This document shows positions 43,486-48,742 of a stretch of DNA of 64,000 bases, piece by piece (the first letter of the stretch is position 1; the number at the start of each line of letters is the position of its first letter). The DNA comes from Bacteroidota bacterium (GTDB lineage Bacteria > Bacteroidota > Bacteroidia > Chitinophagales > Chitinophagaceae). The stretch is taken from positions 5,569 to 69,568 of the forward strand of contig JBANFX010000017.1 in NCBI GenBank assembly GCA_037975805.1, given 5' to 3'. The notes under the pieces were generated by a model. The model was not told the origin of the DNA. It searched no databases and saw nothing but the letters and a program-made list of their open reading frames with translations. The translations under genes were made by a program, and so were the position numbers.

Positions 43486-43818
43486 ATGAAAAAGAGTTTA
43501 GTAATGTTAACCGTTTTCTTATTGTCAGGGGTATTTGTGTTTGCACAAACGCCCACTACCATTAAAGTATCTGGTAATTGTGGTTCTTGTAAAAAAAGTA
43601 TTGAAAAAGCAGCTAAAGATGCGGGGGCTACCACTGCAACTTGGGATAAAGTTACCAAGCTACTTTCCCTAACTTTTGATGCAAATAAGACAAATACGGA
43701 TAAAATTGAAACTGCCATTGCAGGAGTGGGATATGATACCGAGCACAAGGAAGCTACAGAAGCAGCCTATAAAAAGCTAGACGAATGCTGTCAATACGAT
43801 AGAAAGAAAAAAAATTAA
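43486..43818 (+). CDS. Exported heavy-metal-associated (HMA) domain protein
   Basis: Signal peptide, GNCGSCKKSIE (CxxC) and a C-terminal LDECCQY motif. Confidence 0.88.
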   Translation: MKKSLVMLTVFLLSGVFVFAQTPTTIKVSGNCGSCKKSIEKAAKDAGATTATWDKVTKLLSLTFDANKTNTDKIETAIAGVGYDTEHKEATEAAYKKLDECCQYDRKKKN

Positions 43819-43825
43819 GTTCTAT

Positions 43826-43857
43826 AAAAAAGCCCTCCTGTAAATGAGGGCTTTTTT
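43826..43857 (+). terminator. Intrinsic terminator after the HMA gene
   Basis: AAAAAAGCCCTC-ctgtaaat-GAGGGCTTTTTT. Confidence 0.85.
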
Positions 43858-43920
43858 ATAGGCTTGATCCATGCTTTTAGGCAATTAATCCCCCTTGTAT
43901 TTTAAAAGCCATAAATTTTG

Positions 43921-43928
43921 TAACTTTA
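43921..43928 (+). promoter_or_regulatory. -7 promoter element (TAACTTTA), 4 nt upstream of GTG 43933
   Basis: TAACTTTA-gaag-GTG. Confidence 0.55.
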
Positions 43929-43932
43929 GAAG

Positions 43933-44319
43933 GTGAAAAACTTAATTGTCATATTTCTCAGTTCGCTCTACTTTTTAGGTGCCACTGAAGCGTATCAATT
44001 GCTCAAAGTTCCCAATTTGTTTGAGCATTATAAAACGCATCAGCAATTTGAGCAAGGCTTAAGTTTTTCCAAGTTTATTAAAATGCATTATTTCCAGGAA
44101 CAAACTTATGATAACGATTATCAACAAGACATGCAATTGCCTTTTAAATCATCTAATCGTACTGTTTCCTTATTAAATTTTGTGACTTTATTCGCTCCAA
44201 AAATTTCTTTGGCAAGCGCTATCATATTTCCAGATGCGAAAGCATATTTACACTTTAATGACGAAAAGCATTTGTCCATGAATCATGGAAATATTTTTCA
44301 GCCTCCACGATTTTCATAG
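43933..44319 (+). CDS. His-rich hypothetical protein upstream of czcA, ending in QPP; candidate regulatory leader ORF
   Basis: Hydrophobic N-terminus, 6 His and 0 Cys (EHYKTH, MHY), DMQLPFK, and C-terminus IFQPPRFS. Confidence 0.7.
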   Translation: MKNLIVIFLSSLYFLGATEAYQLLKVPNLFEHYKTHQQFEQGLSFSKFIKMHYFQEQTYDNDYQQDMQLPFKSSNRTVSLLNFVTLFAPKISLASAIIFPDAKAYLHFNDEKHLSMNHGNIFQPPRFS

Positions 44320-44377
44320 TCGCCTCTTTTTTCTTACACGAACTGTGTAAATTTCCATCATTATTGAACTATTTTTT

Positions 44378-47300
44378 ATGTTAAATAAAATAATTGCTTA
44401 TTCTATTAAGAATAAGTTAATCATAGGATTATTTGTAATAGCACTTGTGGGTTGGGGTGTTTATGAGGTTACTAAATTGCCTATAGATGCTGTTCCGGAT
44501 ATTACGGACAATCAGGTACAGGTAATTACGGTGTCGCCCTCACTTGGCGCAAATGATATTGAGCGACTGGTTACTTTCCCTATTGAGCAAGCATGTAGCA
44601 GCATACCAGGCACAAAACAAATAAGAAGTTTTTCTCGTTTTGGCTTGTCTTTAATTACCATTGTTTTTAATGACAACATTGATATTTATTGGGCAAGACA
44701 ACAAATAAGTGAAAAATTACAAAAAGTACAACAGGACATTCCACCTGGCACAGGCTCCCCTGAATTAGCACCTGTTTCCACAGGCTTGGGCGAAATTTAT
44801 CAATATGTAGTGAGACCCTTAAAAGGGTATGAGCAAAAATTTGATGCTATGCAGTTAAGGACCATTCAGGATTGGATTGTTCGAAGACAACTCATAGGCA
44901 CACCAGGGGTTGCAGAGGTAGCTAGTTTTGGTGGCAAATTAAAGCAATATGAAATTGCTGTAAGACAAGAACAATTAAAAGCATATGGATTAACCATCAC
45001 TGATATTTTTGATGCCCTCGAAAAAAACAACCAAAATACTGGTGGTGCTTATATTGAAAAAGGGCCAACTGTATTGTATATCCGCAGTGAAGGGTTAACA
45101 ACCAATCTCGAGGATATCAATAAGATTGTAATAAAAGTATTAGATAATGGAACTCCCTTGTTAATAAGAGATGTTGCTAAAGTTCAGTTTGGGGCAGCTA
45201 TTCGATATGGAGCTATGACTTTTAATGATAATGGGGAAGTTGCTGGCGCTGTTGTGATGATGCTAAAAGGTGAAAATTCCTCTGCGGTAGTTAATCGTGT
45301 AAAAGAAAAAGTAGCGCAAATTCAAAAAATGTTGCCAGAAGGTGTAGTGATTGAGCCTTTTTTGGATAGGACAAAAATGGTAAACAATGCCATTAAAACA
45401 GTTGAGACCAACTTGCTGGAAGGCGCATTAATTGTGATTTTTGTACTTGTATTTTTCCTGGGTAACATAAGAGCTGGACTCATCGTATCCTCTGTAATAC
45501 CGCTTTCCATGTTATTTGCCATTATTCTAATGAATATGTTTGGCGTGGGTGGAAATTTAATGTCTTTAGGTGCAATTGATTTTGGACTTATTGTGGATGG
45601 GTCTGTAATTGTAGTGGAAGCTATTTTACATAGATTTTCACATTCAAAACATTTTAGAAATTTGGTTAGTGTGAACCAAGAGGATATGGATGCAGAAGTT
45701 GGTAAATCCACAGGATCGATGATAAAGTCTGCTGTGTTTAGTCAAATTATTATTCTTATTGTGTATTTGCCAATTTTATCATTGCAAGGTATTGAAGGAA
45801 AAATGTTTAAACCTATGGCATTTACCATTGCCTTTGCCATTTTAGGGGCGTTTATTTTATCTATTACCTATGTGCCTATGATGGCTGCTTTATGCTTGAA
45901 TAAAAAGTTAAACCATAAAGCAAGTTTAGCAGATAAACTTATGCGTTTTTTAGAAAGAAGGTATCAGCCATTATTAAGTTTAGTTTTAAAATTCCCCAAA
46001 ACTGTAATTGTGTCAACAGTTAGTTTATTCACCATAGCAGTGGTCATATTATTGAATATGGGAGGAGAATTTATACCACAATTAGAAGAGGGAGACTTTG
46101 CTGTAGAAACAAGGGTATTAACTGGCAGTAATTTAAACAACACCATTGAGTCCACTCAAAAAGCTTCCAAATTATTATTACAAAATTTTCCAGAGGTTGA
46201 AAAAATTGTAACCAAAATAGGAAGTGCCGAAATTCCAACCGACCCAATGCCTTTTGAAGCTGGAGACATGATGGTAATTCTAAAAGATAAAAAAGAGTGG
46301 GTATCTGCAGGATCATTTAGCGAGTTAAGCATGAAAATGACTAAGGTATTGGAACAAGTACCAGGAATTACAGTAGGTTTTCAATTTCCCGTTCAAATGC
46401 GCTTTAATGAATTAATGACGGGTGCAAGACAGGATGTAGTTTGTAAAATTTATGGCGAAAATTTAGACAGCCTCACGAAATATGCAGGCGCTTTAAATGA
46501 AATAATTCAAACGGTGGATGGTGCTGTAAATATTTATGAAGAAAAGGTTACGGGTATGCCACAAGTAGTTATTAAATACAATAGAGACGGAATGGCAAAG
46601 TATGGATTAAATGTAGAAGATATAAATAGAGTTGTAAATAGCGCTTTTGCTGGGCAAATTGCAGGCCAGGTGTATGAGGATGAGAAACGTTTTGATATGG
46701 TTGTGCGATTAGATGGAGATGTTCGAAAAAATATAAGCGATATTAATAACTTATCCATCACTACTTCCAAAGGCTTGCCCATTCCTTTATCAACCGTCGC
46801 GAGTATTGAGCAAATTGAGGGTGTAAACCAAATACAAAGAGAAAATACAAAGCGAAGAATTATTGTAGGATTTAATGTAAATGGGAAAGATGTTCAAACT
46901 ATTGTAAAAGAATTGCAAAGTAAAATCAATAAAAATTTACAATTATCAAAAGGCTATACCATTGAATATGGTGGATCTTTTGAAAATATGACTGCAGCAA
47001 AAGAACGATTGTCAATAGTTGTACCTATTGCTTTATTATTAATATTCTTATTGCTTTACTTTGCATTTGGATCGGCAAAGCAGGGACTACTTATATACAC
47101 TGCAATACCCTTATCTGCCATGGGGGGCATTTTTGCATTGTCGGCAAGGTCCATGCCATTTAGTATTTCTGCAGGGGTTGGCTTTATTGCATTGTTTGGC
47201 GTTGCAGTATTAAATGGTATTTTGTTGGTTTCTGAGTTTAATAGGTTAAAAGCGGAAGGTTGGTATGACGTTACAAGAATAGTTATACATGCTACCAAAT

Positions 47301-48742
47301 CAAAATTAAGAGCGGTCCTTATGACTGCCTTGGTACCTGCACTTGGATTTATTCCAATGGCAATAAGTACCGGAGCGGGTGGTGAGGTTCAAAAGCCATT
47401 GGCTACCGTTGTTATTGGAGGTTTAATTATTTCCACATTGCTAACTTTATTTGTATTACCAGTTATGTATATTTTATTTGAAAAAGGAGTGAAAAAAGTA
47501 AGTAAAAGTAGCGCAGTTTTAAGTTTAATTGGAATGGGTTTGATATTGCATATTGGAGCAATGGCTCAATCTAAAATTACTGTAAATGCAGCAATTGATT
47601 CTACTTTAAAAAATAATGCATTTGCTAAAGTTGCAGCAGCTCAGGTAGATTACTATAAAGCCCTGAAAAAAACAAGTGTTGATATAGATAAAACAGATAT
47701 TGGATTTGGCTATGGGAAAATTAATAGTAATTATAATGATAATGCAATTAATATTTCTCAAAATATTCAGTTCCCTACTGTTTATAAATATCAAGCAGCT
47801 ATCAATAACGCCAATATTGAAATAAGCAACCTCAATAAATTGCAAAAAGAAGTTGAGCTTAAATCTTTGGTTAAAAAACAGTATTATCATTTAGTGCTAT
47901 TGCAACAAAAAAGAAGTTTGTTAAAAGTGGCAGATAGTATATATGCCTCCTTTGTTTTAAGAGCAGTTCAAAAGTTTAATGCGGGTAATGCAGACTTAAT
48001 TGAAAAAATCACTGCAGAAAATCAATTAAATCAAATAAAAAGCCAACTACAGTCTATTCAAATTGGGTATCAGGTTGCATTAAATCAGTTTAATGTTTTG
48101 ATGAATACACAAATACAGTATGAGCCATACTTTGATAACAATATTTTGCTTTTAACTTCCATTCCAGATATGCTTGTATTGGAGCAATCCCCTGCTTTAA
48201 GACTTCAAGCGGCAAATATTACAAAAGCAGAACAACATGTAAAGCTTGAAAAAAGTAAACTGATACCAAGTTTAAATATGGGGTATAACTCCTTAACCAT
48301 TACAGGATGGCAAACTACTCCTCAAAACACAGATCGTTATTTTGGATCGAATCAAAGGTTCGGATCATTTAATATTGGGTTATCTGTTCCTTTATTTGCT
48401 GCTGCTCAAAAGGCAAGAATTAATGCTGGGAATATTGCCATCACCCAAAATAAATTAGAACAAAAAGCAGTGACACAACAATTACAGAATAATTTGTTGG
48501 ATGCAATTGCCATGTATTTACAAAATAAAAAAGTAGTAGAGGAATATCAACGAAATATTTTACCTAATACTAAAATTTTAATCGAATCTGCTTCCAAAAA
48601 GTTGAATGCAGGAGAAATTAATTATTTGGAATGGGTGATGCTAATTAATCAAGCCATCCAAGGACAAAACGAATATTTAGGATACGTTCAACAGCTTAAT
48701 GACGCTGCCGTAGAAGTAGAAAAATTAAGCATAAACAATTAA
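44378..48742 (+). CDS. czcA: CusA/CzcA-family heavy-metal efflux RND transporter fused to a C-terminal TolC-like outer-membrane factor
   Basis: LPIDAVPDIT, GAIDFGLIVDG, GEFIPQLEEGD and QKPLATVVIGG motifs (about 1030 aa RND part), followed by about 400 aa of helical OMF-like sequence. Confidence 0.92.
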   Translation: MLNKIIAYSIKNKLIIGLFVIALVGWGVYEVTKLPIDAVPDITDNQVQVITVSPSLGANDIERLVTFPIEQACSSIPGTKQIRSFSRFGLSLITIVFNDNIDIYWARQQISEKLQKVQQDIPPGTGSPELAPVSTGLGEIYQYVVRPLKGYEQKFDAMQLRTIQDWIVRRQLIGTPGVAEVASFGGKLKQYEIAVRQEQLKAYGLTITDIFDALEKNNQNTGGAYIEKGPTVLYIRSEGLTTNLEDINKIVIKVLDNGTPLLIRDVAKVQFGAAIRYGAMTFNDNGEVAGAVVMMLKGENSSAVVNRVKEKVAQIQKMLPEGVVIEPFLDRTKMVNNAIKTVETNLLEGALIVIFVLVFFLGNIRAGLIVSSVIPLSMLFAIILMNMFGVGGNLMSLGAIDFGLIVDGSVIVVEAILHRFSHSKHFRNLVSVNQEDMDAEVGKSTGSMIKSAVFSQIIILIVYLPILSLQGIEGKMFKPMAFTIAFAILGAFILSITYVPMMAALCLNKKLNHKASLADKLMRFLERRYQPLLSLVLKFPKTVIVSTVSLFTIAVVILLNMGGEFIPQLEEGDFAVETRVLTGSNLNNTIESTQKASKLLLQNFPEVEKIVTKIGSAEIPTDPMPFEAGDMMVILKDKKEWVSAGSFSELSMKMTKVLEQVPGITVGFQFPVQMRFNELMTGARQDVVCKIYGENLDSLTKYAGALNEIIQTVDGAVNIYEEKVTGMPQVVIKYNRDGMAKYGLNVEDINRVVNSAFAGQIAGQVYEDEKRFDMVVRLDGDVRKNISDINNLSITTSKGLPIPLSTVASIEQIEGVNQIQRENTKRRIIVGFNVNGKDVQTIVKELQSKINKNLQLSKGYTIEYGGSFENMTAAKERLSIVVPIALLLIFLLLYFAFGSAKQGLLIYTAIPLSAMGGIFALSARSMPFSISAGVGFIALFGVAVLNGILLVSEFNRLKAEGWYDVTRIVIHATKSKLRAVLMTALVPALGFIPMAISTGAGGEVQKPLATVVIGGLIISTLLTLFVLPVMYILFEKGVKKVSKSSAVLSLIGMGLILHIGAMAQSKITVNAAIDSTLKNNAFAKVAAAQVDYYKALKKTSVDIDKTDIGFGYGKINSNYNDNAINISQNIQFPTVYKYQAAINNANIEISNLNKLQKEVELKSLVKKQYYHLVLLQQKRSLLKVADSIYASFVLRAVQKFNAGNADLIEKITAENQLNQIKSQLQSIQIGYQVALNQFNVLMNTQIQYEPYFDNNILLLTSIPDMLVLEQSPALRLQAANITKAEQHVKLEKSKLIPSLNMGYNSLTITGWQTTPQNTDRYFGSNQRFGSFNIGLSVPLFAAAQKARINAGNIAITQNKLEQKAVTQQLQNNLLDAIAMYLQNKKVVEEYQRNILPNTKILIESASKKLNAGEINYLEWVMLINQAIQGQNEYLGYVQQLNDAAVEVEKLSINN

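Follow-up and report, generated by a model that had tools for sequence, protein, structure and literature searches.

We see a little better than an even chance, judging from the sequence, that the 128-aa ORF ahead of a czcA-tolC/czcB operon is a cis-acting stalling leader of the CutF/CruR kind. Its nascent exported product would sense a periplasmic divalent metal and set the expression of czcA-tolC/czcB. The ORF lies in a window of 64,000 nt, the whole stretch of DNA that was analysed, from a Chitinophagaceae contig of the phylum Bacteroidota. An earlier note on positions 43921-44377 had described the ORF and its surroundings, and all its sequence statements were confirmed by re-reading the DNA. 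The locus contains the following features.

43486-43818: upstream exported HMA-domain gene, named from its domain match
43822..43861, no strand assigned: strong G+C-rich hairpin with T/A runs on both sides, 16-bp stem with 6 GC pairs, terminating the HMA-domain gene
43921..43928, + strand: sigma-A -7 promoter box TAACTTTA (Bacteroidota consensus TAnnTTTG), ending 4 nt before the GTG at 43933
43933-44319, + strand: leader ORF of 128 aa, GTG start, TAG stop
44378..48742, + strand: CzcA-type HME-RND permease fused to a TolC-like outer-membrane factor, 1454 aa
48754..49893, + strand: CzcB-type periplasmic adaptor

The terminator hairpin behind the HMA-domain gene indicates that the leader ORF opens a new transcription unit. 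The leader contains 6 His and 0 Cys, includes EHYKTH and MHY, and has the C-terminus IFQPPRFS followed by TAG. The QPP codons occupy 44299-44307, and the two prolines are residues 124-125 of 128. From the leader stop to the czcA ATG (44378) there is an A+T-rich spacer of 58 nt on the same strand. The czcA product carries ACR_tran at residues 5-1034 and OEP at residues 1267-1450 and matches the CusA/CzcA family TIGR00914; its TM4 motif, DFG..DGS..VEA, is read as the divalent-cation type. No regulator gene was found adjoining the leader-czcA-tolC/czcB operon.

The ORF is not a chance frame, because it has 329 close homologues, 1352 cluster representatives at 50% identity (all unannotated) and 1472 profile matches, with a Limnovirga soli protein among the last. 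The family was found in 68 of the 401 sampled Bacteroidota genomes and is under purifying selection. Pfam and NCBIfam scans of the leader ORF and its relatives gave zero matches (for the leader, Pfam at E <= 0.1). Along the protein, a conserved ligand domain comes first and the PP motif last, and the sequence of the spacer between them varies while its length stays constant. The parts of the protein before the motif are listed below.

43945..43983, + strand: hydrophobic export-signal-like segment IVIFLSSLYFLGA, residues 5-17, after Lys2 and before the conserved T18-E19
44023..44040, + strand: E-H-Y-K-T-H, residues 31-36, with H32 and H36 invariant and one helix turn apart
44083..44091, + strand: M-H-Y, residues 51-53, with H52 and Y53 invariant
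44110..44148, + strand: D-N-D-Y-Q-Q-D-M-Q-L-P-F-K, residues 60-72, the best-conserved block (3.4 bits per column)
44149..44292, + strand: spacer, residues 73-120 (48 residues), ~1 bit per column, constant length

A hydrophobic N-terminus is a family-wide trait, and the 13-residue run at residues 5-17, judged by eye, is export-signal-like. The most conserved columns among the homologues are H-Y-x-x-H, H-Y and D-x-x-LPFK, as the earlier note had proposed to check; the consensus of the residues 60-72 block is DxDYxxDMQLPFK. H32 and H36 are candidate metal ligands, and the family alignments have no conserved Cys column. The 48-residue spacer is long enough to pass through the ribosomal tunnel and the translocon when PP is at the peptidyl-transferase centre.

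The candidate stalling site itself lies at the very end of the protein.

44293..44310, + strand: candidate ribosome-arrest motif I-F-Q-P-P-R, residues 121-126, two residues before the stop codon

It had been proposed that a terminal (Q/H)PP is kept at a fixed distance from the stop in homologues, and this held: the motif is nearly invariant. PP is present in 145 of 145 representatives with a complete C-terminus, with I/V, W/F and Q nearly invariant before it. The pattern [IVL][FW][QRKH]PP[RKQ] occurs in 263 of 269 homologues, and in 235 of these 263 two or three residues follow PP. The family consensus is [IV][FW]QPP[RK], almost invariant, two or three codons before the stop. The distance from H..H to PP is 92 +/- 2 residues, and that from LPF to PP is 55 +/- 2. 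The Pro codons of the motif show synonymous variation within the family, which indicates selection on the peptide and not on the RNA. EF-P normally resolves pauses at motifs with just two prolines, and for this reason QPP, with only two, counts against stalling.

CutF and CruR provide the experimental precedent for this design (PMC9973294; 10.1101/2025.02.05.636593; PMC9426467). CutF, from the cutFOG operon of Rhodobacter capsulatus, resembles the leader in its size (<150 aa). The leader has putative counterparts of its N-terminal export signal and of its exported metal ligands, and in both proteins a proline motif stands close to the stop. The cutF gene likewise opens an operon for metal homeostasis, and a short spacer separates it from the next gene. 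The RNA stem that joins the end of cutF to the initiation region of cutO has a counterpart in many members of the leader family. In size, PP position and downstream gene, the leader and its family fall within the operational criteria for CutF-like proteins (PMC9973294). However, CutF has no detectable sequence similarity to the family, uses CxxxC and disulfides instead of His/Asp ligands, ends with PPP and not with [FW]QPP, and controls a multicopper oxidase rather than a divalent-cation RND pump. In addition, the host phylum of the leader does not use Shine-Dalgarno sequences, and the leader, with its GTG start, is predicted to lie on a leaderless mRNA. In Bordetella pertussis, CruR (Bp2923) is an exported upstream ORF of >100 aa, as the leader is predicted to be, with a C-terminal xxPP three residues from the end (PMC9426467). 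Like the leader family, CruR heads operons of varied metal-related genes, which for CruR include thioredoxin/AhpC-like genes and TonB-dependent transporters (PMC9426467). The distance between the metal motif and the prolines is conserved in both, at 45 residues in CruR and about 55 residues in the leader family. CruR acts via Rho-dependent termination in a 162-nt G+C-rich spacer, whereas the spacer here has 58 nt and is A+T-rich. The leader is an analogue of CruR/CutF in its design and not a member of that family: it has no DUF2946 match, CXXC or RAPP. The DUF2946 profile (PF11162) matched 0 of 18 relatives at E <= 10 and nothing in the window's genome. No DUF2946 members were present in that genome or in a 'Comamonas'-labelled MAG, which looks like a mislabelled Bacteroidota bin. 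The copper motif CXXC / CxxxC is absent from the leader (0 Cys) and from the family alignments, and the proline motif reads [FW]QPP, with PP 2-3 residues from the end, instead of RAPP or poly-Pro. CutF-like proteins of Bacteroidota upstream of ACR_tran (CusA/CzcA) genes have already been published (PMC9973294). The sole His-only CutF-like clusters described adjoin HupE/UreJ genes, not czcA (PMC9973294).

On profile comparison, the leader family is an unnamed His/Asp-type remote sister of the Cys-rich DUF6660 (PF20365), its nearest curated relative. The two aligned with hhalign at a probability of 97.6% and E = 4.5e-12 over the C-terminal 71 columns. The DUF6660 Pfam model did not match the leader or 17 relatives; the Cys-rich neighbours match it at E = 2e-8 to 2e-14. 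Both families have a hydrophobic N-terminus, a ligand block around xPF and a spacer of fixed length, and DUF6660 proteins end with I-W-Q-P-P-(Q/K) two or three residues from the end. Of 13 DUF6660 loci, 10 have the -7 box 4 or 5 nt ahead of the start codon, and the other three have near-matches there. GTG starts are frequent, and the genes stand directly upstream of czcA or TonB-type receptors. The Cys motif of DUF6660, HSHD..D.CSPFC, aligns with the residues 60-72 block of the leader family. The ligands C..CSPFCxCxCC are replaced in the leader family by H..H, HY and DxDYxxDMQLPFK, and the columns of the Cys cluster (C20, C51-x-P-F-C-x-C-x-C-C) read Q-L-P-F-K-S-S-N-R. The leader-family proteins are about 20 residues longer than those of DUF6660.

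We then considered which genes the leader copies accompany. A co-directional czcA lies directly 3' of about 100 of about 110 copies (27/30, 59/62, 14/20), although, given the shared phylogeny of the compared loci, fewer of these observations are independent than the counts suggest. The other downstream neighbours are a CDF transporter, a DUF2231-like membrane protein, a thioredoxin-like protein and cytochrome c. The expectation that the leader stands first in a czcA or other metal-related operon is thereby borne out in almost every case. Several leader copies can occur in one genome, and in one genome three copies precede czcA, a DUF2231-like gene and cytochrome c, respectively. Such varied downstream genes make a dedicated pump subunit unlikely, as it would be less modular.

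The promoter position is also shared by the family. The sequence TAnnTTT[GA], whose chance rate is 0.0014 per nt, ends 3-6 nt ahead of the start codon in 69 of 91 unique family loci. The distance to the start codon is 4 nt in 44 and 5 nt in 22 of the 91 loci, and most of the loci outside the 69 have one-mismatch boxes at the identical position. In Bacteroidota, the -7 box occupies -12 to -5 (PMC9723704). A box ending 4-5 nt before the start codon therefore predicts a leaderless mRNA, and the guess made for this locus alone is now backed by 66 of 91 loci of the family. One low-depth metatranscriptome contig, which may be read-through or DNA, starts at 43902, 31 nt 5' of the GTG. In a relative, a wastewater 'metagenomic RNA-Seq' contig, which may contain DNA, likewise begins upstream of the leader start. 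Both contigs argue against a strictly leaderless mRNA, unless they represent read-through or DNA carry-over. About 70% of the family start codons are non-ATG, mostly GTG or TTG; czcA starts are ~98% ATG. (In the family alignment, ten minus-strand references are one codon out of register, and the conclusions are unaffected.) The leaderless promoter layout together with the mostly non-ATG starts predicts a low output.

Three RNA elements were considered between the PP codons and czcA.

44308-44322, + strand: first hairpin, CGATT-ttcat-AGTCG, 5 bp including one G-U pair, over the stop codon, with a T-run at 44327-44332
44334..44350, + strand: mid-spacer hairpin, TTACAC-gaact-GTGTAA, with a hairpin of differing sequence at the equivalent place in every close relative
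44356..44368, + strand: CATCATTATTGAA, the window version of the sequence-conserved TTCAnnnnTGAA motif, 10-25 nt ahead of the czcA ATG

According to the earlier note, a ribosome at QPP would mask a terminator made of the first hairpin and the T-run. This part did not survive: the hairpin is weak and absent from close relatives. The local RNA fold as a whole is not significant (z = -1.5). The mid-spacer hairpin, compared between sequences, is conserved through covariation, and it may serve in attenuation, RNA processing or transcript stability. MFE hairpins were present in 39 of the 39 spacers examined, with a mean z = -1.43. RNAalifold on MAFFT spacer alignments found no consensus structure, because the spacer hairpins differ in sequence and length and align out of register. 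Per-sequence folding and shuffle tests were used for the spacers in place of RNAalifold. The TTCAnnnnTGAA motif is common to both paralogous operon lineages.

Over 49 diverse loci, the stop region of the leader turned out to be complementary to the czcA initiation region (mean z = -1.2, p about 2e-5). The z value was below -2.5 in 12 of the 49 loci, but in just 0.7% of the 150 gene pairs used as background. The controls were dinucleotide shuffles, control windows inside genes and these 150 pairs, which come from the window's genome. They replaced a comparison of matched and mismatched loci, which was confounded by G+C content. The czcA initiation region pairs with the codons behind PP, the stop codon and positions +1 to +12, and the stem shows a compensatory change in the paralogous lineage. 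In the window's clade, folding predicts an open czcA start region, free of pairing with the stop region (z about 0). At this very locus, therefore, the stem would not provide the output step, which counts against the stalling leader. Two other pairings were rejected. An 8-bp pairing of ATGGAAAT (44285-44292) with ATTTCCAT (44351-44358), taken from the MFE fold, partly survives in a small subclade coding for HGN; as other close relatives have lost it, it was discarded as a conserved element. A pairing between the N-I-F codons and AAGAAATATT, which precedes the ATG, occurs in some relatives only, not in the window, and was treated as chance.

The stalling leader could work in five steps. Transcription from the sigma-A promoter, with the -7 box 4 nt before the GTG, would give a leaderless, weakly translated mRNA from a putative start site. 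The hydrophobic N-terminus would bring the nascent chain to the Sec translocon. When the ribosome reaches I-F-Q-P-P, the His/Asp domain (H32, H36, H52, D60, D62, D66; residues 18-72) would be periplasmic, with the fixed 48-residue spacer bridging the tunnel and the translocon. Pro-Pro bond formation is presumed to be slow at this point, and the I-(F/W)-Q context would lengthen the pause. Metal on the exposed domain would alter the pulling force and, with it, the dwell time 2-3 codons before the stop. The dwell time would then set downstream expression. In many members, a ribosome parked at the stop region may free the paired czcA initiation region, as in CutF-CutO. In the window's clade, where the stem is missing, the output may depend on the conserved mid-spacer hairpin or, as with CruR, on Rho. 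A wider proposal, which is tentative and which we lean against to some extent, joins the His/Asp type and the Cys-type DUF6660 in one ancient Bacteroidota design. Here a leaderless, mostly GUG-initiated mRNA would encode an exported chain that binds metal while I-(W/F)-Q-P-P holds the ribosome, and the parked ribosome would open, or fail to open, a stem over the next start.

If this wider design is real, it would chiefly govern the genes for divalent-metal efflux and uptake in the phylum, acting without a protein regulator. It would include the first nascent-chain sensor of Zn, Co or Cd, the first based on His/Asp ligands and the first where translation does without Shine-Dalgarno sequences. 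For most czc-type pumps of Bacteroidota no regulator is known, and a leader-peptide sensor would explain this gap. The only proven cases of transmembrane co-translational metal sensing are two proteobacterial proteins that sense copper via Cys ligands. The leader, if it stalls as proposed, would take such sensing into a new phylum, to a different ligand chemistry and probably to metals other than copper. It would also give a function to >1,000 'hypothetical proteins' and to DUF6660, and [IV][FW]QPP would be a new natural arrest sequence. With <6% of the mRNAs of the phylum leaderless, the GUG layout would offer a rare case in which leaderless translation could be tested. Annotators could use the small gene with its spacer as a marker of metal-regulated operons. 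Newly described here are the family-wide position of the -7 box, the mostly GTG/TTG starts, the sister relation to DUF6660 and the stop/start pairing in many members.

The product may instead act in trans. The AF2 model is confident for residues 1-75 (pLDDT above 90), with a helix at residues 26-39, and has low confidence in the spacer and tail (pLDDT 54-72). These well-conserved, predicted-to-fold 75 residues could equally suit a stable trans-acting periplasmic protein. Such a protein, periplasmic or membrane-anchored and metal-binding, might act as a chaperone supplying the pump or as a modulator like CzcI, with [FW]QPP[RK] as a protein contact or processing motif. We consider this unlikely. 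The invariant His and Asp fit a metal site, and the window's spacer has no ribosome-sensitive structure. CzcI of C. metallidurans, a small exported protein encoded upstream of czcCBA, has been grouped as CutF-like although it has no proline motif, and it is thought to be a regulator (PMC9973294). Against it, the motif stays 2-3 codons from the stop, behind a variable spacer of constant length, and the low output predicted from the leaderless layout and the non-ATG start would be unusual for a stoichiometric partner. The downstream genes are unrelated to each other (RND pump, CDF transporter, DUF2231-like, thioredoxin-like; TonB-type receptors for DUF6660), the pairing of the stop with the czcA start is far above chance in many members, and Foldseek found no solved fold in the PDB that resembles the AF2 model.

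The known arrest peptides of the PP/RAPP type (SecM, VemP, MifM, ApdA and the RQH family) monitor secretion, and they have in common an export signal combined with a C-terminal arrest motif. The leader could thus be an arrest or translational-coupling leader whose signal is Sec/membrane status, EF-P or proline supply, or plain coupling to leader translation; the stop/start pairing alone would yield such coupling. The RAPP-type peptides (SecM, ApdA, RQH family) also carry their motif near the C-terminus of an exported upstream ORF, but their RAPP-like pattern, (R/Q/H)-(A/G/D)-(P/G/S)-(P/G), differs from the [FW]-Q-P-P-[RK] of the leader family. They lie upstream of sec or yidC, whereas the leader family lies upstream of czcA, a CDF transporter and others; its downstream genes are metal transporters or metal-related, never sec or yidC. 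Both the invariant His/Asp motifs and the DUF6660 Cys clusters resemble metal sites, and we regard a signal other than metal as quite improbable. The synthetic arrest peptide FxxYxIWPPP is similar in having Ile-Trp directly before the prolines and an aromatic residue about 7 positions upstream. It has three prolines and not two, and the leader family has a Gln between Trp/Phe and Pro-Pro.

Finally, we searched the spacer for a promoter of czcA. Canonical boxes were found in 12 of 87 spacers, against about 12.6 expected, and their positions were scattered, so that a canonical czcA promoter was rejected; boxes at the chance rate argue for co-transcription of the leader and czcA. Still less probable than a non-metal signal is that the leader forms an independent transcription unit, with the mid-spacer hairpin (present in every spacer of the clade and followed by a U-rich tract in some relatives) as its terminator and TTCAnnnnTGAA / TAnnTTGA as a non-canonical czcA promoter or operator, for even though TAT(G/T)TTGA, 11-15 nt before the ATG in the paralogous lineage, resembles the SM5 box TAnnTTGY (PMC9723704), the window's motif TTATTGAA fails to fit that box, the stems are short and A+T-rich, the window's hairpin has a poor U-tract, a -33 element has no room outside the hairpin, canonical boxes are not enriched, and the conservation of the PP motif and of its distance from the stop would have no reason. 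In a relative, the wastewater 'metagenomic RNA-Seq' contig, which may contain DNA, spans the end of the ORF, the spacer and the czcA start.

The locus was re-checked in the sequence, and all coordinates and letters of the earlier note, which had proposed a His-rich leader gene with a terminal QPP before czcA, proved correct. The features are as follows (forward strand):

43822-43861, strong hairpin at the end of the upstream exported HMA-domain gene
43921-43928, -7 box TAACTTTA
43933, GTG start, 4 bases after the -7 box
43933-44319, leader ORF, 128 aa
44299-44307, QPP codons of the leader
58 nt, spacer between the leader and czcA, whose ATG is at 44378

The GTG is the earliest possible start behind an in-frame stop. 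The leader product contains six His and no Cys and ends with IFQPPRFS. The czcA product (1454 aa) is a CusA/CzcA-family RND permease (TIGR00914, 1120 bits) with a fused TolC-like OEP domain, and the gene of a CzcB-type adaptor comes next. The TM4 motif of the pump is DFG..DGS..VEA, which we take to be of the divalent-cation type and not of the Cu/Ag type in the HME-RND classification. A search for a regulator gene on both sides of the operon found none. The upstream neighbours encode an MFS transporter, a phosphorylase, a porin and the HMA protein; an unknown protein, a GATase and a peptidase are encoded downstream on the opposite strand. The fusion (44378-48742) joins the inner-membrane pump and the outer-membrane channel in one frame. 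Its homologue on a Chryseobacterium balustinum plasmid has 4350 nt, and therefore the same fusion appears widespread in the phylum. The exported HMA-domain protein (43486-43818) has a signal peptide, GNCGSCKK and a C-terminal ECCQYD motif; its gene has its own strong terminator and lies immediately upstream of the czc module.

Using a word-based search, we found 329 leader homologues with 60-90% identity. An exhaustive phmmer search gave 1352 cluster representatives at 50% identity, and a profile search gave 1472 matches. All named matches are called 'hypothetical protein'; Pfam and NCBIfam scans of the family returned no match, and no named homologue carries a Pfam domain. Of 401 evenly sampled Bacteroidota genomes, 68 carry the family, frequently with 2-3 copies each; they represent 43 of the 178 genera. 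These sequence relatives show that the leader ORF is a genuine gene and that its family, which has no name, is very large.

The expected position at the head of metal operons was borne out. The next gene on the same strand is czcA in 27/30 loci of a phylum-wide sample; czcA also comes next in 59/62 loci from GTDB species genomes and 14 of 20 further, more divergent copies. The spacers to the next gene range from 43 to 368 nt (median 81 nt). Where another gene follows, it too is related to metals or to the envelope: it encodes a CDF (Cation_efflux) transporter, a thioredoxin-like protein, a cytochrome c lipoprotein or, recurrently, a DUF2231-like membrane protein with four helices. In standing before such a variety of metal genes the leader is like DUF2946; a dedicated pump subunit would not be expected to do so. 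Canonical sigma-A -7 boxes are not enriched in the leader-czcA spacers (12/87 versus about 12.6 expected, at scattered positions), and therefore czcA is without an obvious promoter of its own. One contig of a relative from wastewater 'metagenomic RNA-Seq', which may contain DNA, spans the leader end, the spacer and the czcA start. A Chryseobacterium plasmid carries the same module of leader, czcA fusion and adaptor, with the leader annotated as hypothetical. The DUF2231-like protein (170-240 aa; loci L026, L029, L111, L113, L117, L118) is encoded by the second commonest gene after the leader. It shows the motifs MNxxxxHLxLNHxPI..., TGEGTEE, HEExA, GGxIRHTE and an acidic DDDD tail, and its DUF2231 match is weak (E = 2e-5). 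A contig labelled 'MAG: Comamonas sp. lk' (L041, CALPWK020000119.1) carries a typical Chitinophagaceae leader-czcA locus, and its 2.2-Mb genome contains no DUF2946; the record is probably mislabelled or mis-binned.

The TAnnTTT[GA] box has a background frequency of 0.0014 per nt. Of 91 unique loci, 69 have it with 3-6 nt left to the start codon (a gap of 4 nt in 44 and of 5 nt in 22), and most others have one-mismatch boxes in the same place. The sigma-A box of Flavobacterium psychrophilum spans -12 to -5 (PMC9723704); with a 4-nt gap, +1 would therefore be the first base of the start codon. This layout predicts a leaderless leader mRNA. Only 3.7-5.5% of mRNAs are leaderless in the studied Bacteroidota (PMC9723704 among the sources). 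The family starts with GTG in about 60%, ATG in about 25% and TTG in about 12% of cases, and czcA of the same loci starts with ATG in about 98%. A low-depth river metatranscriptome contig (n=1) starts at 43902, which is 31 nt ahead of the GTG, and a similar contig from a relative's locus also begins upstream of the leader start; both may reflect read-through or DNA. They leave the leaderless prediction unproven. The box placement and the start-codon pattern of this family are new here.

We determined the protein anatomy from alignments of members down to 25-30% identity and from the information content per column.

Anatomy of the leader protein
Residues 2-3, Lys/Arg
Residues 5-17, hydrophobic run of 13 residues; 2.3 bits per column
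Residues 18-72, conserved, motif-rich domain
Residues 73-120, spacer of variable sequence and fixed length; about 1 bit per column
Residues 121-126, I-F-Q-P-P-R; 3.6 bits per column

The His motifs proposed as metal ligands are conserved: in the domain P27, H32, H36, H52-Y53 and L69-P70 are invariant, and D60, D62, D66, F71 and K72 nearly so. The DxDYQQDMQLPFK block reaches 3.4 bits per column, and the constant spacer length keeps LPF 55 +/- 2 residues from PP. The terminal PP also lies at a fixed distance from the stop, as predicted: 263/269 homologues have it, in 235 of these 263 the stop comes 2 or 3 residues later, and the remaining six are truncated or, in one case, have QTP. The logo of 145 cluster representatives is S..[YF]LS[SDN]-[IV]-[WF]-Q-P-P-[RK]-x-x-stop. 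Every synonymous combination of the two Pro codons is in use, and thus the peptide is conserved, not an RNA motif. AlphaFold2 (63-sequence alignment) gives a confident helical unit at residues 1-75 (pLDDT above 90) and low confidence (54-72) from about residue 80; a PDB search with the model returned nothing similar. With Pro124/125 at the peptidyl-transferase centre, we infer that the variable spacer would fill the exit tunnel and translocon and the His/Asp domain would sit outside the membrane. The homologue of Thermoflavifilum thermophilum (L019/L094, 141 aa) has lost the QPP ending (...YQVFFFHPFI) and still lies upstream of czcA, with a strongly structured spacer of 188 nt. It is a possible comparison case as a natural 'PP-less' variant.

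The earlier note had also suggested that a ribosome paused at QPP covers a terminator hairpin at 44308-44322. This hairpin has 5 bp with one G-U pair before a T-run; it is weak and absent from close relatives, so neither its role as a terminator nor the masking device is supported. The second hairpin (44334-44350) is supported: one of 4-11 bp and different sequence stands at its place in 39/39 spacers of the window's clade and its paralogous clade, and the spacers fold with lower energy than shuffles (mean z -1.43). After it comes the sequence-conserved motif TTCAnnnnTGAA (44356-44368).

A different and stronger family-wide signal than the hairpins is stop-to-start pairing. For this we took the leader's final 36 nt together with 12 nt past the stop and compared them with the czcA initiation region (-30 to +12). 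In 49 diverse loci the mean z against dinucleotide shuffles was -1.2 (p about 2e-5), with 12/49 below -2.5. The background, 150 pairs of co-directional genes from the window's genome, had a mean of +0.23, with 0.7% below -2.5. By partition-function analysis, the main partners are the post-PP codons with the stop, and positions +1 to +12. The closing stem of the paralogous freshwater lineage varies in sequence but stays complementary, e.g. UUUCUUU/AAAGAAA versus UUACUUU/AAAGUAA. In the window's own clade the pairing is absent (z about 0) and the czcA start region is predicted mostly open, and therefore the candidates for the output step at this locus are others: RNA processing, Rho, or a hairpin acting as a weak attenuator.

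Freshwater Chitinophagaceae (Sediminibacterium-like MAGs) have two paralogous czc operon lineages, with czcA about 63% versus about 90% identical to that of the window. As listed, one set comprises L038, L043-L048, L050, L052, L053, L055-L057, L059, L060, L062 and L069, and the other L031-L037, L039-L042, L046, L049, L051, L054, L058, L061 and L063-L068. Each lineage has its own leader (57-83% identical), and the spacer-closing stem occurs in one only. The motif TTCATTAT(G/T)TTGAA(T/A)AAG (44352-44369) is conserved at the DNA level in both, despite czcA being only 63% identical. In one lineage (group-2 loci) it lies 11-15 nt before the czcA ATG and reads TAT(G/T)TTGA, which is similar to TAnnTTGY, the alternative promoter box SM5.

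Known leaders have a similar build. CruR (DUF2946) has CXXC, a C-terminal RAPP three residues from the end, conserved spacing and an export signal; it stands first in copper-related operons and acts through Rho (PMC9426467). CutF is exported through Sec; when copper binds its periplasmic CxxxC during this export, it stalls at the C-terminal PPP, and the stall opens a stem over the cutO ribosome-binding site (PMC9973294; 10.1101/2025.02.05.636593). The stop-to-start pairing of our family has the same architecture as cutF-cutO, where a stem hiding the next gene's start is melted by the stalled ribosome. The leader motif does not fit the RAPP-like arrest rule (R/Q/H)(A/G/D)(P/G/S)(P/G). Its [FW]QPP is reminiscent of FxxYxIWPPP, a synthetic arrest peptide of E. 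coli that requires the F, Y, I and W ahead of its prolines and is little relieved by EF-P; we note the likeness without treating it as a test. The family does not belong to DUF2946 but is analogous to it. The observation of the earlier note is confirmed, and its interpretation is supported in part: the comparative predictions all hold, and the hairpin device is not supported. On balance we lean towards a metal-sensing arrest leader that acts in cis and is exported during its translation. A periplasmic metal-binding protein acting in trans, the main rival, seems less likely to us. What makes the family interesting is mainly its wide occurrence, its sharp definition and the fact that it can be tested directly.

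Of the 5,334 'CutF-like' proteins listed in the 2023 CutF paper, 19% come from Bacteroidota; ACR_tran (CusA/CzcA) is one of the neighbours named downstream, and two His-only clusters adjoin HupE/UreJ (PMC9973294). The concept therefore pre-exists, including for this phylum. As far as can be checked without its accession list, that paper does not describe the His/Asp czcA-linked family, [FW]QPP, the DUF6660 kinship, the leaderless non-AUG layout or the closing-stem statistics.

This kinship emerged from weak partial matches of the family profile to proteins of about 107 aa with the pattern VKW..ILSIYL..PCAD..HSHD..D.CSPFCxCxCCG..SNFYGSIWQPPQIV, which are Pfam DUF6660. Their genes lie immediately upstream of czcA or TonB-type receptors. 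Profile-profile comparison of the two families gave 97.6% probability (E = 4.5e-12) over the C-terminal 71 columns, with DxDYxxDMQLPFK aligned to HSHDxxxDxCSPFC. Among 13 DUF6660 loci (L098-L110, e.g. L098, G123:C1:1184700-1188000), ten have the -7 box at a distance of 4 or 5 nt from the start, the other three have near-matches in the same place, and eight of the 13 start with GTG. Pumps after both leader types have the common motif DFG..DG(A/S)..(V/I)E(A/S). Thus, the profile link, the common layout and the common pump motif make the window's gene a His/Asp-type sister of DUF6660, which could itself be annotated as a candidate arrest-leader family.
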